A stretch of 24,000 nt of DNA from an uncultured Sulfolobales archaeon (GTDB lineage Archaea > Thermoproteota > Thermoprotei_A > Sulfolobales > NBVN01): the NCBI GenBank assembly GCA_938073905.1, contig CALJEN010000005.1, positions 296,716 through 320,715 of the forward strand, written 5' to 3'. Both the position numbers and the translations under genes were made by a program. The notes under the pieces are model-generated. The model was given only the letters and a program-made list of their open reading frames with translations. It was not told the DNA's origin and searched no databases. How positions within the stretch are numbered: position 1 is the stretch's first letter; each line of letters begins with the position of its first letter. Shown here one piece after another: positions 5,184 to 20,855 of the stretch.

Positions 5184-5536
5184 GTCGCTAGAGTACCTAC
5201 AAGGGTTTGAAACCACTAACCCCAGGATACCCCCGATAGCCTCGGGTCGTCGCTAGAGTACCTACAAGGGTTTGAAACAAGCCGATAGTCAGGACTCTCG
5301 CGGAGCTGATGGCGGGTCGCTAGAGTACCTACAAGGGTTTGAAACGGTTAAGGGGCGGCTAGGGGTTAGGGAGGAAAAAGCTGGTCGCTAGAGTACCTAC
5401 AAGGGTTTGAAACCGTCCTCCCCCGAGGAGGGGGCAGGTAATACCTGGCGTCGCTAGAGTACCTACAAGGGTTTGAAACATGCCGGTTTAAGGCTATAAA
5501 ATGGAAGGTCGCTAGAGTACCTACAAGGGTTTAAAC
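5184..5536 (+). CRISPR. CRISPR array with 6 repeats and 5 spacers; 30-nt repeat GTCGCTAGAGTACCTACAAGGGTTTGAAAC
   Basis: Identical 30-nt repeats lie at 5184-5213, 5249-5278, 5316-5345, 5384-5413 and 5450-5479. A degenerate 29-nt terminal repeat at 5508-5536 reads GGGTTTAAAC, with one G deleted. Spacers are 35, 37, 38, 36 and 28 nt. The plus orientation is inferred from three points: the repeat 3' end TTTGAAAC resembles the ATTGAAA(C/G) 8-nt handle, the degenerate repeat is at the far end, and the only non-coding flank (5025-5183) is on the left. Confidence 0.97.
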
Positions 5537-5785
5537 GGTGGAGGCCTCCCTCTTCCTCAGCAGGGCCTCGTAGTGCGCCTCCTCGAACCTCACCTCGACC
5601 ACCTCGTATCCGCTCCTGGAGGCGACCATCCTCAGGACGCCCACCGGCATGTCCTCCCTCCTGGCCACGACCACCAGCTCGGCGTCCTCGCCCCTGTTCA
5701 GGACGTTCAGGAACCTCACCATCGGGTGGTCCGTGCAGGACGTGGAGCCGGGCCTGAGGTCAAGAACCCTGGTCACCGCTCCCAC
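5531..5785 (-). CDS. TusA/SirA-fold sulfur-carrier-like protein with an atypical active-site motif
   Basis: 84 aa. VLDLRPGSTSCTDHPMVRFLNVLNRGEDAELVVVARREDMPVGVLRMVASRSGYEVVEV aligns by eye to TusA (LDaLGLrCPePvmmvrktvrnm.pGe.LlviaDdp....di..f....gh.lv). CTDHP replaces the CPxP motif. The GTG start lies 26 nt inside the iscU 3' end. Confidence 0.5.
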   Translation of the reverse strand: MGAVTRVLDLRPGSTSCTDHPMVRFLNVLNRGEDAELVVVARREDMPVGVLRMVASRSGYEVVEVRFEEAHYEALLRKREASTV

Positions 5786-6308
5786 CCCTCGGGAACGCTA
5801 CCGTGATCCTGAAGCCGCGGCCGGAGTACAGCATCTCGATCATCTTCTCCTCCTCCAGGGTCTGCCTCTCCTCGATTGTGAGGGACTCGGGGAGCCAGTC
5901 GGGCCTCCTGCCCACCCTCCCGTAGTACGACCTTATCGCCCTCTTGAGGGCCCCTACGGCCAGTATGCTGCAGTGGTACTTTATCGGCGGGAGACCGCCA
6001 AGCTCGTCGGCCAGCTCCCTCCACGAGACCGCCCAGGCCTCCCTCATGCTCTTCCCGGTCACGACCTCGGTCAGTATGCTGGCGGCCGCTATGTTCGCGG
6101 CGCACCCGTAGCTCTCGAAGGTCGCTCTCTCGATGAACTCCTCCCCGTTTCTCTCGGAGACCTTCAGGTAGAGCCTTATCATGTCTCCGCAGGCGGGGCT
6201 CCCGGCCGACTCGACCACGTCCGCGTCCTCCATGGGACCGGCGTTCTTCGGGTTCCTGAAGAGCTCCAGGACTCTCGGCGTGTAGGGAAGCGGTATCCGC
6301 GTGCTCAC
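5760..6308 (-). CDS. iscU: IscU/NifU-like Fe-S cluster scaffold with a ~50-aa C-terminal extension
   Basis: The three scaffold cysteines are in canonical context: GSPACGD, YGCAANIA and KYHCS. It sits directly downstream of the cysteine desulfurase. Confidence 0.85.
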   Translation of the reverse strand: MSTRIPLPYTPRVLELFRNPKNAGPMEDADVVESAGSPACGDMIRLYLKVSERNGEEFIERATFESYGCAANIAAASILTEVVTGKSMREAWAVSWRELADELGGLPPIKYHCSILAVGALKRAIRSYYGRVGRRPDWLPESLTIEERQTLEEEKMIEMLYSGRGFRITVAFPRGGSGDQGS

Positions 6309-6358
6309 CCTCCTCCCCGAGACCTATGCCCTGACTGGGTAATATACCTTTAACGCGG

Positions 6359-7636
6359 TTATAGTGGGGAGCCGGGCCTCGCGGCGCTTATGCTCCTCAG
6401 CCTCGCGACGGCCTTCGGGAAGACCTCCAGCGCGTACTCCACGTCCTCGACCGCGTGGTACCTGGAGGTCTTGAGGAGCACGCTGCCGTGGGCCTCCTCG
6501 TGTTTCCTGCCTATTGCCAGGAGCACGTGGCTCGGCTCGAGGATCCTCGAGGTGCACGCGCTCCCGCTGGCGACGTAGACCCCGTGGAGGCTTAGCTCCA
6601 CCGTGAGGGCCTCTCCCTCTACGTAGAGAAAGCTGAGGTTGGCGTTGTCTGGAGCCCTCCTGCCGAAGTCCGAGGGCCCGTTCAGCAGGACGTCGGGCAC
6701 CCTCTCCACCAGACCGCGGACTAGGGCGTCCCTCAGTCCCCTCATCCTCGACACGTGCTCCTCGAACCCGTCGAAGGCTAGCTCGACGGCCTTCCTGAAC
6801 CCGGCTATCAGCGGGACGTTCTCGACCCCGGGCCACAGCCTCTCCGAGCTCAGCTGGCCCCTGAGCACGGGCTCCAGCTCGACCCCCTCCCTCACGAAGA
6901 GGACTCCCACGCCCCTCGGTCCGTGCACCTTGTGGCTGCTGATCGTGAGCATGTCGACCCCCTCGAGCCTCCGGAGGTCTAGGGGCATCCTCCCGAAGGC
7001 GTCCGCCGCGTCCGTGTGGAACACGGCCGAGGGGTTGACCTCCTTTACTATCCTCGAGAGCTCGCGGACGTCCTGGACCGTCCCGATCTCGTGGTTCACG
7101 GTCTGGACGCTGACGAGCGAGGTCTCCCTGTCGACGAGCTCCTGGAGGACTCCCGGGTCTACGAAGCCCTCGCCGTCCACTGGGATCCTGACGACCCTGA
7201 ACCCGAAGAGCTTCTCGGCCAGCTCGGCCGGCTGGATGACGCTGAGGTGCTCTATCGCGGAGACCAGGATCTTGCCCCTCCTCTCCCTGCGGGCAAGAGC
7301 GTGTCCGAGGATTGCCAGGTTGTTCGCCTCGGTGCCGCTGTGGACTATGGTGAACTCCCCCAGGCCGCCCGCACCGAGGACTCTCGAGAGGAGCTCCTTG
7401 GTCTCGTGTATGACCTCGTAGGCCTCCCACCCGGGTCTGTGGGTGATCGAGGGGTGTCCGTAGCCCACCGAGTTGAAGTAGGGAACCATGGCCTCCACGA
7501 CCTCCCTCGGGACGTAGCCGGAGTTCTCGAGGTCGAAGTACACCTCCCTGGGAGGCCTCCCGTGGGCCTCGAGCAGCTCTCTGACCGACACTCCCTCCAC
7601 CGGCTCTCCGAGCCCGCGCGACGTAATAAACCGCAC
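6359..7636 (-). CDS. iscS: Cysteine desulfurase (class V aminotransferase, IscS/NifS-like)
   Basis: The PLP-lysine motif SSHKVHGPRGVGVL and the active-site cysteine loop SGSACTS are both present. VYFDLENSGYVPREVVEAM corresponds to the iYlD..aTt N-terminal motif. GTG start, with possible later GTG starts. Confidence 0.9.
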   Translation of the reverse strand: MRFITSRGLGEPVEGVSVRELLEAHGRPPREVYFDLENSGYVPREVVEAMVPYFNSVGYGHPSITHRPGWEAYEVIHETKELLSRVLGAGGLGEFTIVHSGTEANNLAILGHALARRERRGKILVSAIEHLSVIQPAELAEKLFGFRVVRIPVDGEGFVDPGVLQELVDRETSLVSVQTVNHEIGTVQDVRELSRIVKEVNPSAVFHTDAADAFGRMPLDLRRLEGVDMLTISSHKVHGPRGVGVLFVREGVELEPVLRGQLSSERLWPGVENVPLIAGFRKAVELAFDGFEEHVSRMRGLRDALVRGLVERVPDVLLNGPSDFGRRAPDNANLSFLYVEGEALTVELSLHGVYVASGSACTSRILEPSHVLLAIGRKHEEAHGSVLLKTSRYHAVEDVEYALEVFPKAVARLRSISAARPGSPL

Positions 7637-7666
7637 CGAGCGGCCCCCGGCTCCGCCGGCCCCCGG

Positions 7667-8152
7667 CTAGGCTCGGGGCCAGCCCGAGAGCAGGTAGACC
7701 GCCGCGGCGAGTATCGAGACCGCCAGCAGCAGCCCGTTGGCCGCCTCGTAAGACCTCCCCCTGGGGCTCGCCAGGCGGACCCTCCTGAACGAGGTGCCCT
7801 CCCTCACGTACACGCCTCCCGAGACCAGGTCCAGCAGCAGGTGGAGTTGGTGGGACATCCCGCACGCCACGAAAGTGGCCAGGTAGAGCCTGGGGTCGTG
7901 TAGGAAGAGGGCCCCGAGGACAGTGGCGAGCAGCGTCGAGAGGAGGGACGCCCTGAGGGGCTCGTGTGTCGCCGGCGACCTGCGCCCGCGGCTGTGCCCG
8001 AGGGAGTCCATGAGCCAGTTCAGGCAGAGGGAGGCCACGAACGCGACGTTGAGCAGCTCCACCCCTCTGCCGAGCCCGGCGAGCCTGAGGACCCACGCGG
8101 ACGCGGCTGCCGACAGCAGGACGTGAACGAGCAGTCTTATCAGTTTCACCAA
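7667..8152 (-). CDS. Polytopic membrane protein, DUF1286 / YdjM-like (possible membrane-bound metal-dependent hydrolase)
   Basis: 161 aa with several hydrophobic segments. The His/Asp-containing stretches MDSLGHSRGRRSPATHEP and GMSHQLHLLLD resemble, from memory, archaeal DUF1286. A minus-strand TATA (TTTTATAAG, ~8178-8186) lies about 30 nt upstream of the start. The functional call is weak. Confidence 0.45.
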   Translation of the reverse strand: MVKLIRLLVHVLLSAAASAWVLRLAGLGRGVELLNVAFVASLCLNWLMDSLGHSRGRRSPATHEPLRASLLSTLLATVLGALFLHDPRLYLATFVACGMSHQLHLLLDLVSGGVYVREGTSFRRVRLASPRGRSYEAANGLLLAVSILAAAVYLLSGWPRA

Positions 8153-8301
8153 GCCCTCCGGGTAACCGAGCTTATAAAATTACATTCATAGAGCATGGAG
8201 GATTGACGTTAGATCCCGCTAGCCGGGGAAGGGGATTCCGGAACAGCGCGGGAGCGCGGTGACACGAGGGGCACCCGCTCCCCGGGCTAGGCCGAAAGTA
8301 T

Positions 8302-9438
8302 TCACGAGGTGAGGACTAGGTAAACCCCGGCGGCCACCAGAGCGATGCCGCCAGCGAGCTCCACCAGGGACGCCCTGCTGGCCAGCCTCTCCACGGCTCC
8401 GAGGAGCCTGCCCGAGAGCAGGGAGAAGGCGAGGTAGGGCGCCACGAAAGCTCCCAGGTACGCCGCGACCAGCGCGCTCGCCAGGGTCTCGGAGCCGGCG
8501 GTGGCCCGGAGCAGGACGAAGTAGCCGGCGCTGCAGGGAGCAGCGCTCAGGGAGGCCGCCAGGCCCAGGAGGAGCGGGAAGAACCCTCCTAGGAGGGGAG
8601 CGGGCAGCCTGCTCGGCGGGGCCCCGAGGTCTCGGCAGGCCCGACCCCCGACTGGGCAGCCTAGAACCCCCCTGGAGTGCAGGACCATGTAGACCCCGAA
8701 GGCTACGAAGAGAGTCCAGGCGTAGGGCCTGAGCAGCGAGAGGAGGCCGTGGAGCCCGGCGACGACCAGAAGGTAGCCGAGGCCCAGCCCCAGCACGAAG
8801 GAGAGAAGCCTGGTCGTAGACCCCCTAGTGGAGGTGGCGTACGAGAGCAGGAGACCCGTGTAGAGGTAGAGGACGCAGGGGCTCAGCGCGGAGGCCGTGC
8901 CCAGAGCGAGTGCCCAGGCGACGAGCGCCACCGGGCTCCCAGCGGGCCTCTCGAGTGGTCTGACCTGGCACCTCTCCGCGCGCTCGCCGGACACCACCGA
9001 CCTCCAGTACTCGTCGTCGCGGAAGAGCCCTATCGAGACTAGGACGATAGACCCTCCGCGCTGGACGAGGACCACGGGGACCTCTGCCAGGTACCTCTCC
9101 TCGACGAAGCCCTCGAGAGAGGACAGCAGCCTCTCGAACAGCTCCTTCCGCTCGACGACGTCCACGTAGGCGACACTCTCTCCCGACAGGAGGTCTCCGA
9201 GGTACCGTTCCATCTCTGCGCACTCTGGACAGCCCCTGATCCCGAAGAGGTAGACCGCTCTGTTCCCGTAGAGCCCGACCAGCTCGGCGACCAGGTTCCC
9301 GGGCTCCTCGGCGCAGCCAACCGCGGACCCCCTGTAGAGGACTGGCACTCCATACGCCCCGTCTCCGCGGGCGTGGACCGCCGGGAGGGCTAGCGACGCC
9401 AGGAGCAGGAGGACTAGTGGGGCCCAGCGCCCCATCAC
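8302..9438 (-). CDS. Secreted thioredoxin-like (CPEC) domain fused to a CcdA/DsbD-type transmembrane thiol-disulfide transporter
   Basis: It has an N-terminal signal peptide (MMGRWAPLVLLLLASLALPAVHA) and a Trx-like region with GCPEC. The C-terminal ~210 aa are polytopic, with two membrane-embedded Cys motifs (ALSPCVLYLY and SAAPCSAGYF) as in the CcdA/DsbD family. Its start overlaps the stop of the upstream Trx gene. Confidence 0.65.
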   Translation of the reverse strand: MMGRWAPLVLLLLASLALPAVHARGDGAYGVPVLYRGSAVGCAEEPGNLVAELVGLYGNRAVYLFGIRGCPECAEMERYLGDLLSGESVAYVDVVERKELFERLLSSLEGFVEERYLAEVPVVLVQRGGSIVLVSIGLFRDDEYWRSVVSGERAERCQVRPLERPAGSPVALVAWALALGTASALSPCVLYLYTGLLLSYATSTRGSTTRLLSFVLGLGLGYLLVVAGLHGLLSLLRPYAWTLFVAFGVYMVLHSRGVLGCPVGGRACRDLGAPPSRLPAPLLGGFFPLLLGLAASLSAAPCSAGYFVLLRATAGSETLASALVAAYLGAFVAPYLAFSLLSGRLLGAVERLASRASLVELAGGIALVAAGVYLVLTS

Positions 9439-10046
9439 TTCCTCCCTCTAATGAAGGCGTACGCTACCAGGGCTCCCCCGGCAGCGACCAGCGCGGCCGG
9501 GACGAGGATCTGCGGACCCAGCTCCCATCCCCGGCTCGGCCGGGTGCTGGCCCCGTTCACCAGGATGTACTTCGATACCAGGTCGCTCTGCTCCGAGAAG
9601 CTCATGGGTATCTCGTACACGTTCGGCGGGACCACCAGCAAGACCCTCTCCCGGGGCTCCATCGCCGTGACGTTTCTCCAGAAGCGCTCGTCCGTTACCG
9701 CTCCCACCACTATCGCTACGATGTACTTACCGTCCCTCACGACGTAGGTCTGGGGTATGGAGCCCAGGTACTCCCGATACTCAGGCGGGACTCTGGTCCC
9801 GAGGACACCCCTGAGGGAATCGAAGGCCCTCCTGCACTCCTCGGACAGGTCTATCTTGCAGAAGAGGTAGCTGTCGGTATACCTCTTGCTGAGGAACGCG
9901 TCGAGGTCTCTGCAGTGGGGACACCACGTGGCGCCGTAGAGGTAGAGGAAAGTGCTGCTGCCGAAAGCTATCCAGAGGTGTGCCAGGTACACCGCAAGCA
10001 AGGCGAGCGCCAGCCACCGGACTGCTCCGAGGTAGCGGTATGCCAC
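9435..10046 (-). CDS. Membrane-anchored extracytoplasmic thioredoxin-like oxidoreductase (WCPHC active site)
   Basis: An N-terminal TM helix is followed by LYLYGATWCPHCRDLDAFL, and there is a C-terminal TM helix (ILVPAALVAAGGALVAYAFI). Its Trx domain is paralogous to that of 8302-9438 (shared ...vvrdG..iv..vG...De.fWr.V). Confidence 0.7.
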   Translation of the reverse strand: MAYRYLGAVRWLALALLAVYLAHLWIAFGSSTFLYLYGATWCPHCRDLDAFLSKRYTDSYLFCKIDLSEECRRAFDSLRGVLGTRVPPEYREYLGSIPQTYVVRDGKYIVAIVVGAVTDERFWRNVTAMEPRERVLLVVPPNVYEIPMSFSEQSDLVSKYILVNGASTRPSRGWELGPQILVPAALVAAGGALVAYAFIRGRK

Positions 10047-10122
10047 GGACTGCCCGGGATCGCACTGCTGGGGAGCCTAAAAACCTTGCCGCCGTCCGGT
10101 CGCATAGGGCGGACTCGAGAGG

Positions 10123-10671
10123 CTACGCGGAGCCCTTCCGCAGGAGGTGCCTGAACGCCCTGAGGTTCACGTCGACCCACTCCCTGGCTACTACCTCCCT
10201 GATCGCGCTCTCGATTGCTTCGGGCGGCACTACGGAGGTCACCCCGACGAGGTGTCCCAGGGCAACCATGTTCGCCACCCTGCTGGTGCCCACCTCCCTC
10301 TCGGCTATGTCCGTGTAGGGCTCGGCGTATACCCTCCAGCTCCTCTGCGGGACGTCGGTCACGTTGGAGCTGTCCAGGAACACCACCGCGCCGTCCCTGA
10401 CCAGGTCTTTGTAGGCGTCGAGCTGGAGCTGGTGCATGAACAGGGCTATGTCGGCCCTCATGACCTTTATGAAGTCGGCCTCCTCCTCCCTATCGGCTAC
10501 CACCAGGTCGACCCTCGAGTCGCCGCCGCGCGTCTCGGCCGCGTAGGTCTCGCTGCCCAGCACGTGCAGGCTCGTGTGCTCGGCTATGGCCTTGCCCAGG
10601 ACATGCCCCAGGAACAGTATCCCCTGCCCGCCCCGACCCGCGATCAGTATCTCCAGCCTCACGCTCCTCAC
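10123..10671 (-). CDS. korG: 2-oxoacid:ferredoxin oxidoreductase, gamma subunit
   Basis: LIAGRGGQGILFLGHVLGKAIAE is the gamma-subunit GxGGQG motif. It is the last gene of the delta-alpha-beta-gamma operon, with a 4-nt overlap with the beta subunit. Confidence 0.85.
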   Translation of the reverse strand: MRSVRLEILIAGRGGQGILFLGHVLGKAIAEHTSLHVLGSETYAAETRGGDSRVDLVVADREEEADFIKVMRADIALFMHQLQLDAYKDLVRDGAVVFLDSSNVTDVPQRSWRVYAEPYTDIAEREVGTSRVANMVALGHLVGVTSVVPPEAIESAIREVVAREWVDVNLRAFRHLLRKGSA

Positions 10672-11510
10672 CCACCGCTGCCGAGGACTCTGGAGAGGTA
10701 CTCGCTATATACGTCTATGTAGCCGGGCTCGTCTCTGTCCACGTACTCCCCCAAGACGAAGCCCTTCTCCCAGCTGTAGTCGCTCTCCTCTACGGAGGGT
10801 CTCGCCTTGACTACGACCCTCTTCCTGAGCTCCAAGTAGAGGTCCGCGGGGTTCCTGAAGCCTATGTGCCTCCCGAAGATCTCGGGACACGTCGACAGGA
10901 CCTCGACGAACGCCATCCCCCTCTTGGCCAGCGCCTTGTAGAACATCTGCTCGAGGAGCTGCGGGTGCGTCGTTGATCCCCTCGCTACGTAGTTCGCACC
11001 CAGGGCCGCCGCGAGCCTCACCATGTTGATCTCCTTTTCCGGGTTCCCGTAGGGCGTCGTGGTCGTGTAGAGCCCTCTGGGGGTGGTGGGCGCGAGCTGG
11101 CCCCCGGTCATGCCGTACACCATGTTGTTCACCATCACGACGAGGAGGTCGGCGTTGCGCCTCAGAGCGTGGAGGACGTGGTTTCCGCCTATGGCAGCTA
11201 TGTCCCCGTCCCCACCGACCACGATCATCTTCATCTCGGGCTTCACTATCTTCACACCGAGGGCGAACGGGATGGCCCTTCCGTGGGCAACGTGGGCGGA
11301 GTCGAAGAGGGGGTAGAGGGACATCCTGGCGGTGCAGCCTATCCCGCCGACGAAGGCCACGTTCTCCCTCTTCAGCTGCCCCTCCCTTATCCTCCTGTCT
11401 ACGGCCCTCAGCAGCGTGCCCAGGACTACCCCGAGCCCGCAGCCCGGGCACCACATCGTTGGTATCCTGTCGACCCTCAGGTACGGGTCTAGCGGGTGTC
11501 CTACAGCCAC
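10668..11510 (-). CDS. korB: 2-oxoacid:ferredoxin oxidoreductase, beta (TPP-binding) subunit
   Basis: WCPGCGLGVV, GGIGCTARM and the TPP motif VVGGDGDIAAIGGNHVLHALRRNADLLVVMVNNMVYGMTGGQ are all present. Confidence 0.9.
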   Translation of the reverse strand: MAVGHPLDPYLRVDRIPTMWCPGCGLGVVLGTLLRAVDRRIREGQLKRENVAFVGGIGCTARMSLYPLFDSAHVAHGRAIPFALGVKIVKPEMKMIVVGGDGDIAAIGGNHVLHALRRNADLLVVMVNNMVYGMTGGQLAPTTPRGLYTTTTPYGNPEKEINMVRLAAALGANYVARGSTTHPQLLEQMFYKALAKRGMAFVEVLSTCPEIFGRHIGFRNPADLYLELRKRVVVKARPSVEESDYSWEKGFVLGEYVDRDEPGYIDVYSEYLSRVLGSGG

Positions 11511-12625
11511 TTCTTGACCACCCCTGCTACCTCCTGGGGTAGGGGCATGTCCAGGTCTATAAGGGGCACGCTGACGACCTCCTTATCCCTCAGCACCCCC
11601 CTCAGCTCCCTGAAGTAGAGGCCTACGTTGTTCTCGACCACGAACACCTTCTCGACCCCCTTCAGCAGACCGGCTACGCCCTCCTCGTAGACTGGGAACA
11701 GCGTCCTCAGGGTAACCGAGCACGCTCGGAAGCCCTCCTCCCTCAGCAGCTTGGCGGCCGCTCTGGCCGACAGAGCGGTCGACCCGTAGGAAACAAGCGC
11801 GTGCTCGCAGCCGTCGAGGTGAGTCGCCGAGTAGTCGAAAAGCTTCTCGGAACTCTCGACCACCTTCCTGTAGAGCCTCCACATGAGCCTCCTCTGGATG
11901 TCCGTCCTGGGAGCGTAGTAGCCCCTCTCGTCGTGGGTCAGAGACTCGACCAGGACGTTGTAGCCCTCGCCGAAGCATGCCATCGGGGGCACGAGCCCAC
12001 CGAGGGGATCGTATGGCCTGTAGGCCTCGGGCGACACCGAGGGCTTTCCGCGGTCCACCACCTCGACCTCGCCCCGCTCGCGGACGGCGACCTTGCCGTA
12101 GGTGTGGGCCACGACGGCGTCGGAGAGGAGCACCACCGGCGTCCTCAGCTCCTCCGAGACGTTGAACGCTCTCACGGTCAGGTCGTATGCCTCCTGGGGC
12201 GTAGACGGAGCGAGAACGGGTATCACCAGTCCCCCGTGGAACCCGTAGGTGGCCTGGAGCACGTCGTACTGGCCCGACCTCGTGGGGACGCCCGTCGAGG
12301 GGCCTGTCCTCATGACGTACGCCACGACCAGCGGCGTCTCCGTGATCACGGCCAGGCTCAGGGTCTCGAGCATGAGGGAGAAGCCTGGCCCGCTCGTCGC
12401 CGTCATGCTCTTCGCGCACGCCCAGGAGGCCCCTACCGCGGCGTTTATCGAGGCTATCTCGTCCTCGAACTGGACCACGTGCCCTCCGCGCTTCGGGAGC
12501 TCCCTAGCTAGGTACTCGAATATGTCGGATGTCGGGGTGATCGGGTAGCCTGCGTAGAACTTCAGCCCCGCAGTTATCGAGGCCTTGGCTATCGCCGTGT
12601 TTCCCGTTATGTACTCGTACCTCAC
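11501..12625 (-). CDS. korA: 2-oxoacid:ferredoxin oxidoreductase, alpha subunit
   Basis: ITGNTAIAKASITAGLKFYAGYPITPTSDIFEYLA...FEDEIASINAAVGASWACAKSMTATSGPGFSLMLE...GPSTGVPTRSGQYD are canonical alpha-subunit motifs. The D-A-B-G gene order and subunit sizes resemble KGOR-type enzymes. Substrate specificity cannot be read from the sequence. Confidence 0.9.
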   Translation of the reverse strand: MRYEYITGNTAIAKASITAGLKFYAGYPITPTSDIFEYLARELPKRGGHVVQFEDEIASINAAVGASWACAKSMTATSGPGFSLMLETLSLAVITETPLVVAYVMRTGPSTGVPTRSGQYDVLQATYGFHGGLVIPVLAPSTPQEAYDLTVRAFNVSEELRTPVVLLSDAVVAHTYGKVAVRERGEVEVVDRGKPSVSPEAYRPYDPLGGLVPPMACFGEGYNVLVESLTHDERGYYAPRTDIQRRLMWRLYRKVVESSEKLFDYSATHLDGCEHALVSYGSTALSARAAAKLLREEGFRACSVTLRTLFPVYEEGVAGLLKGVEKVFVVENNVGLYFRELRGVLRDKEVVSVPLIDLDMPLPQEVAGVVKKWL

Positions 12626-12828
12626 CCCGCGCTCACCTCAACGAATATCGCGAAGTCCGGACAGTTGTACTCGCAGAGCCTGCACCCGATGCACTTCTCC
12701 GGGCGTGCCGGGACAGCGTGCCTGTAGCCCCTCCTGTTCCGGGCGCTCCCTATCTCCAAGACCTTCGTGGGGCACACGGTCACACATATGCCACACTCCT
12801 TACACCTCTCTGTTAGAACGCTGATCAC
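12622..12828 (-). CDS. korD: 2-oxoacid:ferredoxin oxidoreductase, delta subunit (2x[4Fe-4S] ferredoxin)
   Basis: Two CxxCxxCxxxCP motifs: CKECGICVTVCP and CIGCRLCEYNCP. GTG start, with a 4-nt overlap with the alpha subunit. Confidence 0.85.
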   Translation of the reverse strand: MISVLTERCKECGICVTVCPTKVLEIGSARNRRGYRHAVPARPEKCIGCRLCEYNCPDFAIFVEVSAG

Positions 12829-13030
12829 GTACTTCCCCTCTCCCCTTACTACGGGAACTGGAGAGGCACCCAGCCTCTCGCACCGGGCGATAACTTGAGC
12901 ACGGCTATTAAAGACCAGCGTAATTAACGTTATAGAATCTGAACAGGCTAAAATGGCTTGAGCGGTCCCCGCTCCCGCACCCCGAGCCGCGCGCCCCGCC
13001 TAGGCTCTCGCTCACCCCCGGGACGATCCG

Positions 13031-13318
13031 CTAGACCTCCACACCTATCCTCACGAGGTTGCCGTCCACCAGGACTATGGTGCGACCCGCGGAGTACTCC
13101 ACCTCCACCAGGCGGAGCTCTCCACCGAAGGACTCCTCGAGCGACGACAGAGCTGCCACGGCTATCGAGATGGCTCTCGCCAGAGGCTCGTCGAGCTCGC
13201 TCACGTTGCCGAGCGCGTCTACGATCTCGCCCGTAGACCTCTCTACCACGATGATTCTGCTGGGAAGCTCTGGAGCCAGCTCGACTCGGGGAATCCCGCT
13301 CACGCTGGCAGTCTCCAT
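13031..13318 (-). CDS. Small conserved-looking protein, possibly Roadblock/LC7 (MglB-like) fold
   Basis: 95 aa. The pattern RIIVVERSTGEIVDALGNVSE...ARAISIAVAALSSLEE...LRLVEVEYSAGRTIVLVDGNLVRIGV resembles Roadblock/LC7 domains. A palindromic TATA (CTTTAAAG, 13355-13362) lies upstream. This is a weak, by-eye assignment. Confidence 0.35.
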   Translation of the reverse strand: METASVSGIPRVELAPELPSRIIVVERSTGEIVDALGNVSELDEPLARAISIAVAALSSLEESFGGELRLVEVEYSAGRTIVLVDGNLVRIGVEV

Positions 13319-13446
13319 CTGGCTTCTCCCGTTACGAGCCTCGGATGGCAGTTACTTTAAAGAGCACACCTCCATCTCCGGTGGCCCTCGGTAGCGCGCT
13401 CTGCCCTATTAAGCTCTGGGTTCTCCGCGTACTGTGGTGCGGAGGA

Positions 13447-14256
13447 GTGTGCTGGGGCGTACTGGGGAAGCTCGTCAGAATGGAGGGGGTGGAGGGGGAG
13501 GTCGAGGTCGGGGGGACCACGATAAGAGCCCTCGTGGCTCTGGAGGACGCTAAGCCGGGAGACGTCGTTCTCGTCCACGCGGGTGTCGTGATAGAGAAGC
13601 TCGACAGGGAGAGAGTCCTGGAGAACCTGGCGGTGTACTACGACCTCGCCAAGTACCACTACGTCTTCAACGGGGAGAGCGAGGAGGAGGCAGCGAGGAG
13701 GGCCCGGGAGGACATGGTGAGACTGGCCGGGGAGCTCGGGATCCCCGAGGACGAGATGCTCAGGGCCATCCGCGAAGCGGGTGAGGGGGGCGCGGGTCTC
13801 GGGGAGCCTAGACCGGAGGGGGTGCCAGAGACCGCGTTCTCGATGGACTACATGGTCCAGCTCGCCGAGACGGACTACCTCCAGGTGATGCACTACACCA
13901 ACTACGTGAGGGTCTGCGAGAGGGCCTTCATGGTCATGCTCGCCAGCGCGGGCATCGGCTACAGCAGGCTCATACACGAGTACGGGCTGTTCATCCCGAC
14001 GGTGGAGGTGAGCGCCAAGCTGAGGGCCCCCTCGAGGCTCGACAACAGGCTGAAAGTCTACGTCTGGGTGGAGGAGGTGGGGAGGAAGCACGTCAAGTAC
14101 AGGTGCGTGGTCTACAACGCCACCTCCGGGCGGGTCGCGGCCGACGTGACTCACGTGGCCGTCTGCACCGACACCGCTCTCACCTCCAGCCACGAGATAC
14201 CGGAGGACGTGAGGAACGCCCTGAGGAGCATGGTTTCGGCGAGCGGCGGTGCCTAG
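13447..14256 (+). CDS. HypC/HybG/HupF-family domain fused to a 4HBT/YbgC-type hotdog acyl-CoA thioesterase domain
   Basis: From the in-frame GTG at 13447 the product starts MCWGVLGKLVRMEGVEGEVEVGGTTIRALVALEDAKPGDVVLVHAGVVIEKLDRERVLENL. This carries the HypC hallmarks of Cys2 and the VLVH.G histidine. The C-terminal part, AETDYLQVMHYTNYVRVCERAF...GLFIPTVEVSAKLRAPSRLDNRLKVYVWVEEVGRKHVKYRCVVYN...VAADVTHVAVC, fits the 4HBT hotdog fold with the (D/E)TD catalytic Asp. A TATA (CTATTAAG, 13406-13413) lies ~34 nt upstream. The track's ATG at 13345 would place promoter sequence inside the CDS and bury the essential N-terminal Cys. Confidence 0.75.
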   Translation: MCWGVLGKLVRMEGVEGEVEVGGTTIRALVALEDAKPGDVVLVHAGVVIEKLDRERVLENLAVYYDLAKYHYVFNGESEEEAARRAREDMVRLAGELGIPEDEMLRAIREAGEGGAGLGEPRPEGVPETAFSMDYMVQLAETDYLQVMHYTNYVRVCERAFMVMLASAGIGYSRLIHEYGLFIPTVEVSAKLRAPSRLDNRLKVYVWVEEVGRKHVKYRCVVYNATSGRVAADVTHVAVCTDTALTSSHEIPEDVRNALRSMVSASGGA

Positions 14257-14418
14257 AGGCGCGCTCGCCCGGCTCGGGGTGCCTAGCTCTCGCACCCCTC
14301 CATGCCCAGCGCCGAGCGGAAGCGCTGTTCCCGGGCTTCGGGTGGAGCGCGGATCCGGGGGTTCTCGAGGGCTCCCGGGACAGCAGTTTAAGTATCCTCC
14401 ACGAGAATAGAGTACGCG

Positions 14419-14467
14419 GTGATGAGTCCGCCGAAGATGATCGGTGAAGTGAGGACTCGAGCACTGA
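14419..14467 (+). ncRNA. Candidate C/D box sRNA (2'-O-methylation guide)
   Basis: C box GUGAUGA (14419-14425), 12-nt spacer, degenerate D' (UGAU, 14438-14441), degenerate C' (GUGAAGU, 14444-14450), 13-nt spacer, D box CUGA (14464-14467). A TATA TTTAAGTA (14387-14394) sits 32 nt before the C box. The internal boxes are poor and no terminal stem is evident. Confidence 0.3.
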
Positions 14468-14606
14468 TTCTCCGAAGGGAAGCGCGCTCTCAGCCTGTCG
14501 GTAGAGGCGATTCGTAGATCCCGTACCAGAAGCCACCGCCGCGCTAATCTCCGGTTAATTTAAAGCTTATAAGAGAGCCCTTCCGTACTCTAGGAAAGGA
14601 CTCGAA

Positions 14607-16661
14607 GTGCTCGCGCTGCTGGTAAGCACCGCGGTGGGTTGCCTGATCCTCGCGTACGCGGCATACCTGGCGGCCTCTGTCATCAGGTACCCTCCCGGTA
14701 CCGGTAGAGCCGTCGAGATCCACGAGTTCATCAAGGAGGGTGCGAGGGCCTACCTGAGGAGGCAGTACGGAGTTATAGCAGCCATAGCCGTAGCCCTGGC
14801 GGTAGCCGTCTTCGCGCTGAACCTGGTTCTCGGCAGGCCGGTGCCCTGGCGGTCGCCCGCGATCTTCCTGGCGGGAACTGCATCCTCCATGGCTGCAGGC
14901 TACTTCGGCATGTCCGTGGCCACTCGAGCCAACGTGAGGACGGTCAACGCGGTCGTAAAGCGCGGCTTGGGGGAGGCATTCTCCTTAGCGCTCCGGGGAG
15001 GGCTCGTCATGGGTCTGACCGTAGCCGGTCTCGGGACGTTCGCCGTGGCCTCGCTCTCGCTAGCTCTCGGCCTAGCGGAGGACGTGGTCAGAGACCTAGT
15101 GTATTACGCGTTCGGAGCCTCTACTGTAGCCCTCTTCGCTAGAGTCGGAGGCGGGATATACACGAAGGCCGCCGACATAGGTGCCGACCTGGTGGGCAAG
15201 GTCGAGGTCGGGATACCGGAGGACGACCCCAGGAACCCCGGCGTCATAGCCGACAACGTGGGGGACAACGTGGGGGACGTAGCGGGCATGGGGGCCGACC
15301 TCTTCGAGTCGTACGTCGAGGCTATAATCTCTACCATGGTCATAGCCCTATCGCTCGGCGTCTCCGGCTGGAGGGACTTCGCAGCACTGCCAGTGCTGGT
15401 CTCGGCTCTCGGACTAATCGCGTCAGCCGCGACAGTGGCAGTGGCGCTCCTCGGTCGGGTGAAGGACCCGGCGCGGACGCTGACCCTCTCCAGCCTAGCC
15501 TCGGCGGTGATGATAGCAGTCGTTAGTTACTTCGCGTCCACCCTCCTCATGGGTGGGGAGCTCGGGACTAGAGCGTGGGCGGCCATCGTCGCTGGGCTGG
15601 CCGCGGGTGCCGCGGTCGGGCTCACCAGCGACTACTTCACTAGGAAGGGACTGCCGCCGACGGCCAAGGTGGCCGAGATGTCCCAGATGGGGGCTGCTCT
15701 CACCATACTCTCGGGGATGTCCTACGGGTTCCTGAGCGTCGTCGTGCCCGCAGTCGGCATAGCGGTAGCCGCTCTCGCGGCCTTCTACCTGCTCTCGACC
15801 GTCGGGGGCTTCTGGTACGGGATCTACGGAGTGTCCCTGTCGGCCGTCGGGATGCTCTCGCTGACCGGGTTCATAGTGGGAGCGGACGCCTACGGACCCA
15901 TAACCGACAACGCGGCCGGCATAGCGGAGCAGGCCGGGCTCGGCGAGGACGTCAGGTCCGTGGCAGACATCCTCGACTCGGCCGGCAACACGATGAAGTC
16001 CGTGTCGAAGGGCTACGCGATAGGCTCGGCGGCCCTAACGGCACTGGCACTGCTGGCGGCTTACGTGAGCGTTCTGCCGAGGGTCGACATGTCCCAGCTC
16101 GGGCTCCTGAACCCCTCGGTGATGGCCGGGCTCTTCGTCGGGATGGCTGTCCCGGCCCTCTTCACCGCTATAGTGATCAGGGCCGTCGGTGACGCGGCCT
16201 TCGAGCTGATAGCGGAGATCAGGAGGCAGTTCAGGGAGAGGCCCGGGATACTGGAGTTCAGGGAGAGGCCGGACTACGGGAGGGCCGTGGACGTGGTGAC
16301 CAAGTACGCGATCAAGAGGCTGGCAGTGCCCGGGCTCCTGGCGATAGCCGTGCCCATAGTCATAGGGGTTGCGCTGGGCCCGTACGCTCTCGCCGGGACT
16401 CTGGCCGGAGCCATACTAGCGGGACTCCTCCTCGGTCTCTTCCAGGGCAACGTGGGGAACACCTGGGACAATGCGAAGAAGTACATAGAGGAGGGACACT
16501 TCGGCGGAAAGGGGAGCGAGGCCCATAGGGCCGCGGTCATAGGCGACACCGTCGGAGACCCCCTCAAGGACGCCGCGGGACCCTCCCTCAACATACTGAT
16601 AAAGCTGATGAGCGTCGTCGCGCTCGCGTTCGCACCGGCGCTCGCAGCGGCGCTCGTGTGA
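14607..16661 (+). CDS. hppA: Membrane-integral H+-translocating inorganic pyrophosphatase
   Basis: 684-aa polytopic protein with the diagnostic motifs GGIYTKAADIGADLVGKVE, PEDDPRNPGVIADNVGDNVGDVAGMGADLFESY and DTVGDPLKD. GTG start, preceded by the TTAATTTAAAGCTTATAAG promoter region (14555-14573). Confidence 0.97.
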   Translation: MLALLVSTAVGCLILAYAAYLAASVIRYPPGTGRAVEIHEFIKEGARAYLRRQYGVIAAIAVALAVAVFALNLVLGRPVPWRSPAIFLAGTASSMAAGYFGMSVATRANVRTVNAVVKRGLGEAFSLALRGGLVMGLTVAGLGTFAVASLSLALGLAEDVVRDLVYYAFGASTVALFARVGGGIYTKAADIGADLVGKVEVGIPEDDPRNPGVIADNVGDNVGDVAGMGADLFESYVEAIISTMVIALSLGVSGWRDFAALPVLVSALGLIASAATVAVALLGRVKDPARTLTLSSLASAVMIAVVSYFASTLLMGGELGTRAWAAIVAGLAAGAAVGLTSDYFTRKGLPPTAKVAEMSQMGAALTILSGMSYGFLSVVVPAVGIAVAALAAFYLLSTVGGFWYGIYGVSLSAVGMLSLTGFIVGADAYGPITDNAAGIAEQAGLGEDVRSVADILDSAGNTMKSVSKGYAIGSAALTALALLAAYVSVLPRVDMSQLGLLNPSVMAGLFVGMAVPALFTAIVIRAVGDAAFELIAEIRRQFRERPGILEFRERPDYGRAVDVVTKYAIKRLAVPGLLAIAVPIVIGVALGPYALAGTLAGAILAGLLLGLFQGNVGNTWDNAKKYIEEGHFGGKGSEAHRAAVIGDTVGDPLKDAAGPSLNILIKLMSVVALAFAPALAAALV

Positions 16662-16671
16662 AGAGCTCCCG

Positions 16672-16676
16672 TTTTT
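16672..16676 (+). terminator. Oligo-T terminator candidate after hppA
   Basis: A TTTTT run lies 11 nt after the hppA stop, in the convergent gap with etfA. A matching T-run on the minus strand (AAAA at 16767-16770) follows the etfA stop. Confidence 0.4.
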
Positions 16677-16779
16677 CCGGTCAGCCCGCTCTCTCCCAGT
16701 CCCAGCGAATCCTCATCTCTCAAACGCTAGAGCTTGTCGGTGGTAAAGGGGGTCGGTCTCGCGGAGAAAACGCTACTCC

Positions 16780-17802
16780 CTACCTTCTCTTGCCCAACCT
16801 CTCGATGAGCTTGGGCAAGACCGCGAACAGGTCTCCCACTATCCCGTAGTCCGCTACTCTGAAGATGGGTGCCTCCGGGTCCCTGTTTACCGCTATCACC
16901 ACCTTCGAGTCCTTCATCCCGACCACGTGCTGTATCGCACCGGAGATCCCGACTGCTATGTAAACCTCCGGCTTGACGGTCTGACCGGTCAGGCCGACCT
17001 GGTGGTCGTACGGTATGAGGCCAGCGTCGACGGCTGCTCTCGAGGCTCCCACCTCCGCGTTCAGGGCTTTGGCCAGCTCCCTGACAAGCTCGAACCCCTT
17101 CGCTCCGCAGCCCCTGCCGCCGGCCACTATGATCCTCGCCGACCTCAGGTCTACCTTCCTCGTCTCCCTCCTGACCTCGATCACCTCGGCTGCCTCGAGG
17201 GAGCTCTCCTCTATCTCCGCGCTCCACTCGACGACCCTGCCGGTCCTCGAGGGGTCTCTCGGGGGAACCGGGAAGAGTCCGGGCCTCACGGTCGCCATCT
17301 GAGGTCTGTGCCAGGGTGTGACTATGGCGGCCATGATCTCCCCTCCGAACGTGGGCCTCAGCTGGTAGAGGACTCTCTCGTACCTCCTGCCCGTCGCTGG
17401 ATCCACCCAGTCGCCTATGTCCACGTCGGTGCAGTCCGCCGTTATCCCCGTCCTGAGCCTCGCCGCGATCCTCGGGGCCAGCTCGCGCCCCGTGGTCGTA
17501 GCGGAGAACAGGACTATCTCGGGCCCCACATTCCTGATGACCTCCGCGGCAGCGTCTGTATACGGGAGGACGCTGTACGTAGCGAGCCTGGGGTCGTCGA
17601 CTACGTGGACCTCCTCCGCTCCTCTGTAGACGACCTCCTCCGCCACCCTCCTGACCCCGTGTCCGACCAGGATGGCGCCGACGCCGAGGCCCGCTTTGGT
17701 GGCTAGTTCTTTGGCCTTCCCCAGGAGCTCTAGGGAGTGCTCGGCTGGTGTCCCCTCTAGTACCTCTACGTAGACAAGTAGCTTGCCCGCCAACCTCCTC
17801 AC
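16780..17802 (-). CDS. etfA: Electron transfer flavoprotein, alpha subunit
   Basis: The C-terminal FAD-binding motif is present: [53 protein letters not shown]. 4-nt overlap with etfB. Confidence 0.9.
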
Positions 17803-18626
17803 ACCCCCAGCGGTACGCCGTCTTTCCTCAGCTCCTCGAGGAGGCGGTCTACGGCTCTATCTGGGTCGGCCTCCGAGATTACGACGCCCTTCCTCTTGAT
17901 CTCCACCCTCCACATCCTGACCACCCTCGTGGGGGAGCCCGCTATACCGACCAGGGAGGGGTCTATGCCCGCGTCGTCCGCGCTCCACACGGCCACCTGC
18001 TTCCGCCTGGCGGCGAGGACGTCTCTCAGAGAGGGTATCCTGGGCTGATAGCTGGTGCCAGCGATGCTCAGGACAGCCGGGAGCTTGACCCTCACCACCG
18101 CGTACCCCCCCTCGATCAGCCTCTTGACCGATACCCGACCGTCCCCGACCTCGAGGATCCTGTCCACGTAGGAGACGCTCGGGATGCCGAGCCACTCCCC
18201 GACCTCGGGGCCTATGTGGCCGGTGTTGCTGTCCGAGGTCTCGATGCCGCAGAGGACCAGGTCTACCCCGCCCAGCCTCTGCTCCAGTCTCCTGATGACG
18301 GCGGAGAGGGCGTACGAGGTGGCCAGAGTGTCCGACCCGGCCAGCCTGGGGTCGCTCAGCAGGACGGCCTCGTCGACCCCCATGGCTAGGACCTCTCTGA
18401 TCGCGTCGGCGGCGTGTGGAGGAGCCATGGAGACGCTGACGACCCTCCCGCCGAACCTCTCCTTCAGCTGGACGGCGGCCTCCACCGCGTGCTTGTCGTA
18501 CGGGTTGACCACCAGCTTCGCGGCGGACCTGTCGATGGTCCCGTCGGGTCTGAACCTGACCGCGGCCTTCGGGTCTACGACGGGCTTCACCAGCACGACC
18601 ACGTTCATGGGCACTGTCCGGCCCAC
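17799..18626 (-). CDS. etfB: Electron transfer flavoprotein, beta subunit
   Basis: [19 protein letters not shown]...[18 protein letters not shown] is typical of the EtfB N-terminus. The more likely start is the internal ATG at 18608 (MNVVVLVK). Confidence 0.9.
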
Positions 18627-18645
18627 CCGCGGCGCGACCGCTCTC

Positions 18646-19875
18646 CTACTTCCTCTTGGAGGTGTACTCCCTTCCCACTACCTCGCGGGCCACTATCAGC
18701 CTCATTATGTCCAGAGAGCCCTCGGCCCAGTCGTAGCTCTTGACGGCCTTGAGGGCGAGCGCGACCGGGTTCTCCTCGGTGTAGCCGTAGGCCCCGTACC
18801 ACCTGAGGGCGTCGTCTATGGCTCGCTTGGCGGCCTGAACCGCGAAGAGCTTGGCCGAGGCCGTTATCCTGGTCACCTCGAACCTGCCGATCCTGCCCTC
18901 CTGCTCCATCTTCAGAGCCCACAGGGCCTTGTAGGCCAGAGCGTGGGCCGCCTCGAGCGCTGCCCAGTTGTCGGCGAGCTGGAACTGCACCCCCTGGAAC
19001 GAGGCCACGGGCTGACCGAAGGCCCTTCTCTGCTTGGCGTACTCCAGAGCGAGCTCTATGGCCCTCTTGCCTCCCACCGCGCACGCGAGGGCTATGTAGG
19101 CTCTCGCGTGGTCGAAGCCCTCCATGGCTATGTAGAAGCCCCTGCCCTCCTCACCTATCCTGTACCTCTCCGGGACCCTCACGTCGCTCAGCACGAAGCT
19201 GCCGAACGACCAGCCCTTCCTCCCGAACTCCTTCTCTAGCCTGATCGATACGTTGGGGTCCGTGAGGGGGACGAAGAACAGGGTCATTCCCCTGTGCTGC
19301 TTGGACTTGTCCGTGTAAGCCAGCGTGACGTGGCCTCCACCGTCCGGGAACCACACGCCCCTCTCCTTCGCCTCCCTGACTCCCGAGATGTAGGCCTTCT
19401 CTCCTGCGATCACGTACCCGTCTCCGTCCCTCCGGGCCGCCGTCGCGATCCCCGTGAGGTCGGAGCCCGCCCCGGGCTCCGTAGTAGCTATCCCGATCCA
19501 GACGTCACCGGTCGCCGCCCTCCTTATCACGTCCTCTCGGAACTCTTCGTTGCCGTATTTGTAGGCCACGTAGCCCCAGGACGTGTGGACTAGGTAGGCG
19601 ACGGCCAGGGAGAACGTCAGGTCTGCCCTGACTATCTCCTCCAGCACGATGCCCGCCGTGACCGGGTCCAGCCCGAGGCCTCCGTACTGTTCGGGGAAGA
19701 GGATTCCGAAGAGCCCGAGCCTGGACATCTCCCTCACGATCTCCGGCGGAATGAGCTGCTTCTCCTCGAACTCGACGACCCTCGGAGCGATGTACTTCTC
19801 CGCAAACTCTCTGACCGTAGACCTCACGTCCTCCTGTTCCTTGGCGAACTCGAAGTCCACGGGCATCGGTGGCAC
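18646..19875 (-). CDS. Acyl-CoA dehydrogenase (FAD-dependent)
   Basis: 409 aa with ACAD motifs: TEPGAGSDL, YAKQRRAFGQPVASFQGVQFQLADN, and a C-terminal YDWAEGSLDIMRLIVAREV carrying the catalytic-Glu context. A minus-strand TATA (CTTATATT, ~19899-19906) lies about 25-30 nt upstream of the ATG. Confidence 0.9.
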   Translation of the reverse strand: MPPMPVDFEFAKEQEDVRSTVREFAEKYIAPRVVEFEEKQLIPPEIVREMSRLGLFGILFPEQYGGLGLDPVTAGIVLEEIVRADLTFSLAVAYLVHTSWGYVAYKYGNEEFREDVIRRAATGDVWIGIATTEPGAGSDLTGIATAARRDGDGYVIAGEKAYISGVREAKERGVWFPDGGGHVTLAYTDKSKQHRGMTLFFVPLTDPNVSIRLEKEFGRKGWSFGSFVLSDVRVPERYRIGEEGRGFYIAMEGFDHARAYIALACAVGGKRAIELALEYAKQRRAFGQPVASFQGVQFQLADNWAALEAAHALAYKALWALKMEQEGRIGRFEVTRITASAKLFAVQAAKRAIDDALRWYGAYGYTEENPVALALKAVKSYDWAEGSLDIMRLIVAREVVGREYTSKRK

Positions 19876-20005
19876 CGGAAGCGGTATTCGCTAACTCAAT
19901 ATAAGCCGGTGAGAGCCACCGGGGCACACGTGCTACCGCGAGGTGGTGGTCGGTTGAGGCAGCCGGAAGCGGGAGCAAGGTCGGGTTCGGCTGCAGCCCC
20001 TAAAT

Positions 20006-20020
20006 AGTAAACTTTATATA
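20006..20020 (+). promoter_or_regulatory. Strong BRE/TATA promoter (AGTAAA-C-TTTATATA)
   Basis: A purine-rich BRE-like AGTAAA sits immediately 5' of TTTATATA (20013-20020). The predicted start at ~20043 coincides with the 5' strand of the terminal helix of the downstream structured RNA. Confidence 0.55.
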
Positions 20021-20042
20021 CTTCTCCCCAACACTACATGAT

Positions 20043-20469: not shown

Positions 20470-20855
20470 TCACTCTGGCGGGGCGCCGACTCCGGGTGGC
20501 GTTCCCCCTTCTTCGCTCCCGCACAGCTCGCCTATCACAGCTACCAGATCGTTACCATGTACCTCGCTACGATGGGTCTCCTACCCGCTGCTATATACTC
20601 CGGGCTGAGGTAGTCCTCGTACTTCGTCATCTTGTCTACAGTCACCCTGATGTCCAGGCCCGGGTCATCGCGACGCCATTTAAGGTTCAACGAAACTCCG
20701 CTTATCGGACGGACCTCGCTCGGTCTCTCTTCGCCTCTCCGCCGTAGAGAGCTAGCTTCTAGGGTCCACGGCTGGCTACCGCCCGATGCCTGCTTCGCCG
20801 TCGGTGACTCCGGCTTTTTACCTTCTGGCCCACTACTCGTTCGGAAGACCGTCCG

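Follow-up and report, generated by a model that had tools for sequence, protein, structure and literature searches.

The stretch of DNA studied here is 24,000 nucleotides long and comes from an uncultured Sulfolobales archaeon; we refer to it, at its full length, as the window. It contains, on the forward strand, a gene that joins a HypC domain, of the kind that acts in [NiFe]-hydrogenase maturation, to a hotdog-fold thioesterase domain. The gene and its parts are listed below, with domain limits in amino acids (aa).

13447..14256, forward strand: HypC-thioesterase fusion, whole gene, 269 aa, GTG start and TAG stop (open reading frame, sequence, Pfam, homologues)
13447..13662, forward strand: HypC domain, aa 1-72, a beta-barrel and a C-terminal helix (Pfam, alignment with 2z1c/3vyr, AlphaFold model)
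13663..13824, forward strand: family-specific helical extension and disordered tether (secondary structure and per-residue confidence, pLDDT, of the AlphaFold model)
13825..14226, forward strand: YbgC/4HBT-type hotdog thioesterase domain, aa 127-260 (Pfam, PDB profile matches, Foldseek)

The longest open reading frame (ORF) opens upstream of the gene, at ATG 13345. Because all homologues begin with M-C-W-G, the start is placed at GTG 13447, with GTG-TGC at 13447-13452 providing the codons of Met1 and Cys2. From this GTG the frame is uninterrupted down to the TAG at 14254-14256, and a single ORF of 269 aa joins both domains, as an earlier note on this DNA had read it. Searches of the product with Pfam profiles agree, with HupF_HypC, 4HBT_2 and 4HBT all exceeding their gathering scores. 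Database homologues comprise P0001, which matches the window protein at 100% identity, and 44 other full-length proteins. The AlphaFold (AF2) model of the fusion has a mean pLDDT of 81.

In terms of extent, a search of 5.8 billion proteins returned 45 clusters of the family, all of 259-282 aa and all with both domains. A profile of the hotdog domain only gave 64 clusters at 90% identity, all of them fused. The sole short match in that search (P0051, 152 aa), with hypE-hypF behind it, runs into a contig end that truncates the gene, and it was rejected as a free-standing, hyp-linked hotdog protein for this reason. An exhaustive HMMER search of 1.84 billion representatives found four fused representatives at 212-243 bits, one free-standing protein of 153 aa at 154 bits, and ordinary archaeal thioesterases of 135-146 aa at 108 bits or less. 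The HypC and hotdog domains of the family are always joined; the fusion is obligatory, and the family is rare, archaeal and sharply bounded.

We compared orthologues for a stop or frameshift between the two domains and found none, the frame being continuous in the 64 clusters and in 24 species-level genomes from different studies. Since the two-domain protein recurs in this manner, the architecture is not the product of chance, a frameshift or a chimera. The idea of two genes joined by an error of sequencing, assembly or reading frame is refuted by this recurrence, and we leave it a negligible probability.

The 24 genomes come from a scan of one genome per GTDB species, with patterns drawn from the hotdog motif and covering the members that carry this motif. 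All are metagenome-assembled genomes (MAGs), with no cultured organism among them. By their record titles, they belong to Sulfolobales/Desulfurococcales, Nitrososphaerota, “Geoarchaeota”, Hadarchaeota and, in one case, Hodarchaeaceae. Two clades are seen. Members of clade A, that of the window, share 66-81% identity with the window protein and have Leu at position 6, while those of clade B share 40-49% and mostly have Pro there. Invariant or conserved positions of the family include Cys2, His44, Asp143 and about 40 others.

The N-terminal domain matches the Pfam family PF01455 (HupF_HypC) at 52.0 bits, over a cut-off of 28.5, with aa 1-63 lying on a model of 65 positions. An end-to-end alignment pairs residues 1-69 with the HypC of T. 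kodakarensis, which has 75 aa (2z1c/3vyr), at an E-value of 3e-9. In the AF2 model, strands are found within aa 5-52 and a helix at aa 54-74, with a pLDDT of 72-92 for the block. Cys2 is encoded at 13450-13452, and MC(W/L/I) opens the full-length members whose starts are correctly called, with the exception of locus L007. His44, in the VLVHAG motif (codon 13576-13578), is invariant across 24 aligned relatives and matches the VIVHTG of 2z1c; we take it to correspond to His51 of E. coli HypC and His45 of T. kodakarensis. Both residues had been named as conserved in the earlier note, and sequence and alignment confirm them. With its N-terminal Cys and conserved His in place, this domain is a complete HypC. 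Pfam, motif and fold, and gene context at the level of the family, make the protein a member of the HypC superfamily, and a divergent one.

The exception, L007 (9998-10012; MAG KUA_Bin18, clade A), has ACG before the Cys2 codon, not ATG, GTG or TTG. The next candidate start, GTG 10010, gives a protein with no Cys2. Candidate explanations are an error of sequencing, a start codon of non-canonical type, and loss of the Fe-binding Cys in that lineage.

Between the two domains, the AF2 model places two extra helices, at about aa 79-96 and 101-113, and predicts disorder only at about aa 113-125, some 12 residues. The earlier note had described an acidic linker of about 70 aa. The acidity holds, with 19 Asp/Glu against 10 Lys/Arg over aa 53-128. 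The term linker does not, as most of the region is predicted to be structured, and its aa 54-74 are the normal C-terminal helix of HypC. Conservation is lowest in this extension and tether, at 26% and 11% between-clade identity, and the region is far shorter in one family member of 216 aa (P0066).

The best conserved part is the hotdog domain: the two clades are 53% identical over it, and 38% over the HypC domain. The hotdog domain matches Pfam 4HBT_2 at 54.3 bits (cut-off 25.5; aa 137-259) and 4HBT at 40.8 bits (cut-off 20.6). Among PDB entries, the C-terminal 140 residues have profile matches to 5v10 (62 bits) and to YbgC of E. coli (1s5u, 44 bits). Foldseek finds 5v10, 1z54, 1s5u and 5t06 at E-values of 1e-11 to 1e-8, with target TM-scores of 0.8-0.89. 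The (D/E)TD context of the catalytic Asp, as proposed earlier, is present as E141-T142-D143. Asp143 (codon 13873-13875) is the counterpart, by alignment, of the catalytic Asp18 in E. coli YbgC, and 17/17 fused proteins and 55/55 stand-alone relatives have this Asp. It is followed by Y-L-Q in all fused proteins; at the same three positions, E. coli YbgC has A-G-G and the majority of the 55 stand-alone relatives A-(A/G)-G. Other invariants specific to the fusion are L139, T151, C157, I176, H177, F182, T185 (Arg in relatives), N200 and T241. Residues E158 and R159 of the hotdog helix and several other conserved positions are shared with the stand-alone relatives.

By Pfam, fold and catalytic Asp, the C-terminal domain belongs to the 4HBT/YbgC hotdog class and is predicted to be a thioesterase, apparently catalytically intact. 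Since the residues beside the catalytic Asp are remodelled, its substrate is probably unlike that of ordinary YbgC enzymes. YbgC of the Tol-Pal system proper is ruled out (TIGR02799, 38.8 bits against a cut-off of 141), and no Tol-Pal family appeared among the Pfam scans of the genes of the window.

As hotdog domains are obligate oligomers, the domain might instead be a non-catalytic module for dimerisation or scaffolding. We consider this very unlikely, since three phyla share the catalytic Asp and its surrounding motif without variation, and conservation of the domain exceeds that of HypC itself.

The closest non-fused relative is the protein of 153 aa and 154 bits (P0226; L029 75-536). It has non-coding DNA upstream and is genuinely free-standing. 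D-Y-L after the catalytic Asp is retained in it, as is the LIHEY motif, while His149 and Cys157 are missing. This protein may descend from the fused domain or be its precursor. P0227 and P0229, which also stand alone and are more distantly related, lie among unrelated genes, and no hyp gene was found on the contigs of these three proteins (1.1 kb long in the case of P0226).

The gene context of the family carries most of the functional assignment. Genes were called by conservation weighting in all loci and clustered, and the clusters were tested with Pfam and phmmer. In clade B, hypD lies directly upstream of the fusion and on the same strand in 17/17 loci with upstream DNA (Pfam HypD, 388-400 bits). 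These loci (L009-L013, L015-L024, L026 and L031) span three phyla and are phylogenetically related. The gap between hypD and the fusion is 1-5 nt where gene ends are well defined. Within 10 kb, hypE and/or hypF are found in 7 clade-B loci. A [NiFe] large subunit with its protease is present in 4. The order in L009, L010 and L012 is [NiFe] large subunit, maturation protease, hypD, fusion, hypE, hypF. No second HypC-like ORF is present in any locus surveyed, and the fusion therefore occupies the hypC position. Predicted co-transcription with hypD is normally the rule in the family.

The hydrogenase connection suspected in the earlier note is thus strongly supported at family level. The same note had placed the gene away from hyp genes, which holds for the clade of the window only and fails for the family.

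As for a third conserved partner of the hypD-fusion pair, such as a source of formyl-CoA, none was found among the neighbours of the surveyed loci. The neighbours are 2-hydroxyacid dehydrogenase, FGGY kinases, isochorismatase, TRAP transporter, dihydroorotate dehydrogenase, TATA-binding protein (TBP) and XdhC, with only XdhC recurring, in three loci. The XdhC/CoxI family comprises chaperones for insertion of the molybdenum cofactor. Its gene is convergent and just downstream of hypD-fusion in L019 (11074-11871, reverse strand), L024 (3127-4023, reverse strand) and L026 (10993-11844, reverse strand).

HypC binds Fe through its N-terminal Cys and forms, with HypD, the scaffold where the Fe(CN)2CO unit is assembled and from which it is handed to the large subunit. 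We conclude that the fusion gene probably encodes the [NiFe]-hydrogenase-maturation HypC of anaerobic, mostly thermophilic archaea, with an apparently competent YbgC-type thioesterase domain added to it. Through Cys2, the protein would work with HypD as the scaffold that builds and delivers Fe(CN)2CO. Active sites of the YbgC class sit at a dimer interface, and for this reason the fusion probably acts as a dimer, which would hold two HypC heads. The flexible tether might then let the thioesterase site reach the iron site of HypC-HypD and cleave a thioester there. For the role of the added domain, we rank removal of acyl adducts or clearing of acyl-CoA first, release of CO or of an Fe-bound acyl group second, and a structural role third. 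The remaining weight goes to some other thioester substrate.

The first of these would be a protective or proofreading deacylase, one that hydrolyses acyl adducts on Cys2, on neighbouring Hyp cysteines or on nearby acyl-CoA, and in this way keeps the thiol free. It is a tentative proposal, well short of an even chance. An N-terminal Cys reacts readily with thioesters, by S-acylation and S-to-N shift, especially when hot, and many of the hosts come from hot springs or hydrothermal sites by their record titles. The domain resembles an ordinary hydrolytic thioesterase with its Asp intact, the tether is predicted to be flexible, and the clade-A gene lies among producers and consumers of acyl-CoA, namely a 2-oxoacid:ferredoxin oxidoreductase (OFOR), electron transfer flavoprotein (ETF) and acyl-CoA dehydrogenase. 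However, thermophiles with an ordinary HypC do without such a domain, as T. kodakarensis does with its HypC of 75 aa. Ignisphaera aggregans has HypD, yet no fusion was matched in the scan of its genome. The very high conservation and the remodelled pocket also suggest a specific substrate, not a generic one.

Alternatively, the hotdog domain could bind formyl-CoA or a small acyl thioester, cleave its C-S bond at the HypC-HypD iron and deliver the carbonyl carbon as Fe-CO. It would then be a lineage-specific CO-ligand synthase of anaerobes, a counterpart of the CoA-dependent C-terminal domain of HypX. This we hold to be unlikely. On its side, the fold is one that cleaves CoA thioesters and keeps the catalytic Asp, it is covalently tied to the Fe-binding chaperone with its gene beside hypD, it is the most conserved part of the protein, and Y-L-Q replaces A-G-G around the catalytic residue. 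HypX itself uses enzyme-bound formyl-CoA, and formyl-CoA is among the candidates for the anaerobic CO source (PMC12134894). The idea is compatible with the literature in that the anaerobic source is open and formyl-CoA is discussed there. On the other hand, no gene producing formyl-CoA is consistently linked in the surveyed loci, where the pair has no third conserved partner, and the AF2 model gives no structural support for an active site facing Cys2. Anaerobic CO-ligand synthesis is universal, whereas the family is found in 24 species, so that such a route would at best be confined to a lineage. Hotdog enzymes of this class act as hydrolases, and we know of no decarbonylase in the fold. We give CO synthesis no higher probability than the protective role.

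Clade A presents another picture of gene neighbourhood. The neighbours of the fusion there are a divergent gene of 95 aa, a four-subunit OFOR operon, two thioredoxin-like membrane proteins, cysteine desulfurase, IscU and H+-pyrophosphatase. In the window, the following were located on the side of the Isc genes.

5531..5785, reverse strand: weak TusA-like ORF of 84 aa, beside the IscU-like and cysteine desulfurase genes
5760..6308, reverse strand: IscU-like protein (NifU_N, 128 bits; Pfam), the IscU/IscS pair lying 6-8 kb upstream of the fusion
6359..7636, reverse strand: cysteine desulfurase (Aminotran_5, 173 bits; Pfam)
7667..8152, reverse strand: DUF1286-like protein of 161 aa, beside the membrane-associated paralogues
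8302..9438 and 9435..10046, reverse strand: a pair of paralogues, apparently membrane-associated, with IscS on one side and the OFOR operon on the other

One protein of the membrane-associated pair has a weak, sub-threshold thioredoxin match with a CPHC motif, and the other has no Pfam match. Together with the DUF1286-like protein, the pair forms a block kept in all clade-A loci. In two clade-A MAGs (L005, 213-5989; L014, 2723-8563), the block of OFOR, thioredoxin-like and DUF1286-like genes is inverted, so that it shares the strand of the fusion and lies directly upstream, and the divergent 95-aa gene is absent.

The fusion adjoins the OFOR operon in 10/10 clade-A loci, and IscS/IscU lie within 10 kb in 7/10. 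The earlier note had raised the possibility of a HypC fold recruited to non-hydrogenase Fe/acyl chemistry, and from this setting it could be argued that clade A left hydrogenase maturation, its protein now serving as an acyl-CoA thioesterase or as a factor handling Fe/S for OFOR or IscS/IscU. The strand shared with the OFOR block in L005 and L014, the replacement of Pro6 by Leu and the lack of hyp genes within 10 kb in clade A are in line with this. Several results speak against it, however. The synteny is limited to close relatives and is compatible with one relocation event. The protein still has Cys2, His44 and every hotdog invariant. The Isc neighbourhood fits a hydrogenase role too, since IscS/IscU are also found within 10 kb in three clade-B loci, next to the hypD-fusion pairs of L019, L026 and L031, and since, in E. 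coli, the iron of the NiFe cofactor has been proposed to come from the Isc machinery (PMC10847431).

Furthermore, the genomes of clade A keep hypD. In MAG SKW88, hypD (P0104) and the clade-A fusion (L002) are on one contig of 333,766 bp (JAOAKQ010000002.1), about 114 kb apart, and this hypD is solitary, a survey out to 10 kb having shown no HypC-like ORF. In ten further assemblies, the fusion and a HypD have NCBI accessions that lie 25 to 1,167 from each other (for example MEM2407251/MEM2407226, MEM2308743/MEM2308708 and MEM1623298/MEM1623178). The earlier note had looked to the occurrence of the fusion in genomes without [NiFe]-hydrogenase machinery as the test of its hydrogenase idea, and the presence of hypD in clade-A genomes came out in favour of the link.

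Selection within clade A tells the same. The ratio of non-synonymous to synonymous substitution (dN/dS) is 0.095 in the HypC domain and 0.085 in the hotdog domain, and reaches 0.26 in the helical extension; these values are approximate because dS is about 1.1. Both domains are under purifying selection, and the HypC head is constrained as strongly as the thioesterase. With hypD retained and both domains under such selection, we conclude that clade A moved the gene and kept its role. We infer, for the genome of the window itself, that the gene was relocated and still does its hydrogenase-maturation job. The link to hydrogenases is much stronger than the window alone suggests, and the hyp-free context is a rearrangement specific to the clade of the window. 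A departure of clade A from hydrogenase maturation is, accordingly, quite unlikely, and the proposed recruitment of the fold finds no support.

In Sulfolobales-type MAGs, one of them SKW88 with its clade-A fusion, the solitary hypD is followed by a same-strand gene of 301 aa of the formamidase/acetamidase family FmdA_AmdA (L027, 10001-12292; L028, 1162-3453; L036, 5215-7370). No such gene is present in the 17 clade-B loci. In L036, a NikR_C gene is about 3 kb away. The pairing could be plain synteny of close relatives, or a link of hypD to formyl or amide chemistry.

Some observations weigh against assigning the gene to hydrogenase maturation with a working thioesterase. In terms of the window, no hyp or hydrogenase gene was found in its 24 kb by Pfam scans of plausible genes and by phmmer with HypD, HypE, HypF, the large subunit and HycI, with HypA and HypB left without a dedicated profile search. 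This agrees with the claim of the earlier note. The only G3E GTPase of the window is of the MeaB type (183 bits to MeaB against 20 bits to cobW/HypB/UreG). For the organism of the window, the link to hydrogenases is one of homology to relatives that are 66-81% identical. The ten fusion/HypD pairs are assigned to the same genomes because their accessions are near, which assumes consecutive issue per assembly, and all data on the family come from MAGs.

As for the protein, the Pro6 of the HypC motif is Leu6 in the window protein and in the whole of clade A, as the earlier note had pointed out; elsewhere in the family this position is Pro in most members and Ile, Val or Met in a few. On NCBIfam TIGR00074 (hypC_hupF), the window protein scores 31.9 bits and six other members 32-43, below the cut-off of 48, so that the HypC head is a divergent subfamily. 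On TIGR00051 (YbgC/FadM), the score is 45.2 bits against a cut-off of 68.7, with family members at 45-64. As all tested members are below both cut-offs, the two domains are both divergent. The AF2 geometry between domains carries no confidence (predicted TM-score 0.53). Lastly, the thioesterase activity is a prediction from sequence and fold.

Compared with known systems, the fusion shares with HypC/HybG (T. kodakarensis 2z1c and 3vyr; E. coli HypC) the N-terminal Met-Cys, the His of the hVHxG motif, the OB-type beta-barrel with one C-terminal helix and, in most lineages, a gene paired with hypD. It differs from them in about 195 extra residues, comprising two helices, the tether and the thioesterase, in a gene order of hypD then hypC, in the Leu, Ile, Val or Met found at Pro6 in some lineages, and in scores below the TIGR00074 cut-off. 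Trp3 stands where T. kodakarensis HypC has Leu, and the Leu6 of the window protein where it has Pro. With thioesterases of the YbgC/FadM type (1s5u/5t06, P. aeruginosa 5v10, T. thermophilus 1z54) it has in common the fold, the catalytic Asp and E158/R159. Unlike these, the domain of the fusion is never free-standing, has Y-L-Q after the Asp, is without Tol-Pal context and falls below the TIGR00051 cut-off.

HupF of Rhizobium and Cupriavidus is a HypC paralogue with a C-terminal extension that is short and not a hotdog. The fusion resembles it as a HypC-fold chaperone with a C-terminal addition, and PDB 3d3r (“hypC/hupF”) is a weak match at 21 bits. A precedent comes from the [Fe]-hydrogenases, where HcgE and HcgF act in a thioester step of FeGP-cofactor biosynthesis, with a protein thioester as precursor of the iron-bound acyl ligand. 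Their folds are unrelated to the fusion, the hydrogenase class is another one, and HypC is not involved.

The likeness to HypX is that of a CoA-thioester-handling module attached to [NiFe] maturation, predicted from the fold in the case of the fusion. HypX decarbonylates enzyme-bound formyl-CoA to CO (PMC12134894). There is no homology between the two, the formyltransferase-like N-terminal and crotonase-like C-terminal domains of HypX being absent from the Pfam scan of the fusion. HypX is also a separate protein, not joined to HypC, and is found in aerobes.

A 2025 review by Sawers and colleagues calls the CO ligand's source in anaerobes the most pressing open question and counts formyl-CoA among the candidates; neither “thioester” nor “fusion” occurs in its text, and thioesterases are not mentioned (PMC12134894). 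In the literature on HypC with thioesterase, hotdog or acyl-CoA, we found no published description of a HypC-thioesterase fusion, in agreement with the earlier note, which knew of no function described for the architecture. The proteins are annotated as “HypC/HybG/HupF family” (NCBI) or as “acyl-CoA thioester hydrolase” (JGI), never as both. The fusion is undescribed, rare (24 species) and archaeal, a known HypC with an added, predicted catalytic module. This finding corrects the annotation of proteins that have both domains and are labelled by one.

Since a thioesterase domain is fused to the chaperone and kept beside hypD across three phyla, evolution has tied thioester chemistry to the assembly site of Fe(CN)2CO. 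The fusion connects this chemistry with the question of the CO-ligand source in anaerobes, and makes a long-standing question experimentally approachable through a compact handle, one protein of 269 aa with a single obvious catalytic residue. If CO synthesis were its role, it would be the first enzyme identified that forms the CO ligand independently of oxygen during [NiFe] maturation, and the hotdog fold would gain a new type of reaction. A protective role, if true, would point to an unconsidered vulnerability of a chaperone with an N-terminal cysteine.

The rest of the window contains other gene groups. Genes for ETF alpha and beta, acyl-CoA dehydrogenase and the MeaB-type G3E GTPase are found at 16780-19875 (reverse strand) and 20856-21770 (forward strand). 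No methylmalonyl-CoA mutase was recognised beside the MeaB-type GTPase, and the adjacent ORF of 140 aa (20191-20613) has no Pfam match. At 557-5024 (reverse strand) lies a type I CRISPR-Cas effector cluster with Cas5, Cas7, a Cas8b/TM1802 family protein and Cas6, and at 5180-5540 a small CRISPR array with 6 repeats of about 30 nt (GTCGCTAGAGTACCTACAAGGGTTTGAAAC), spaced 58-68 nt apart. The GC content is 54-55% over positions 1-4000, against about 64-67% over 6001-24000.

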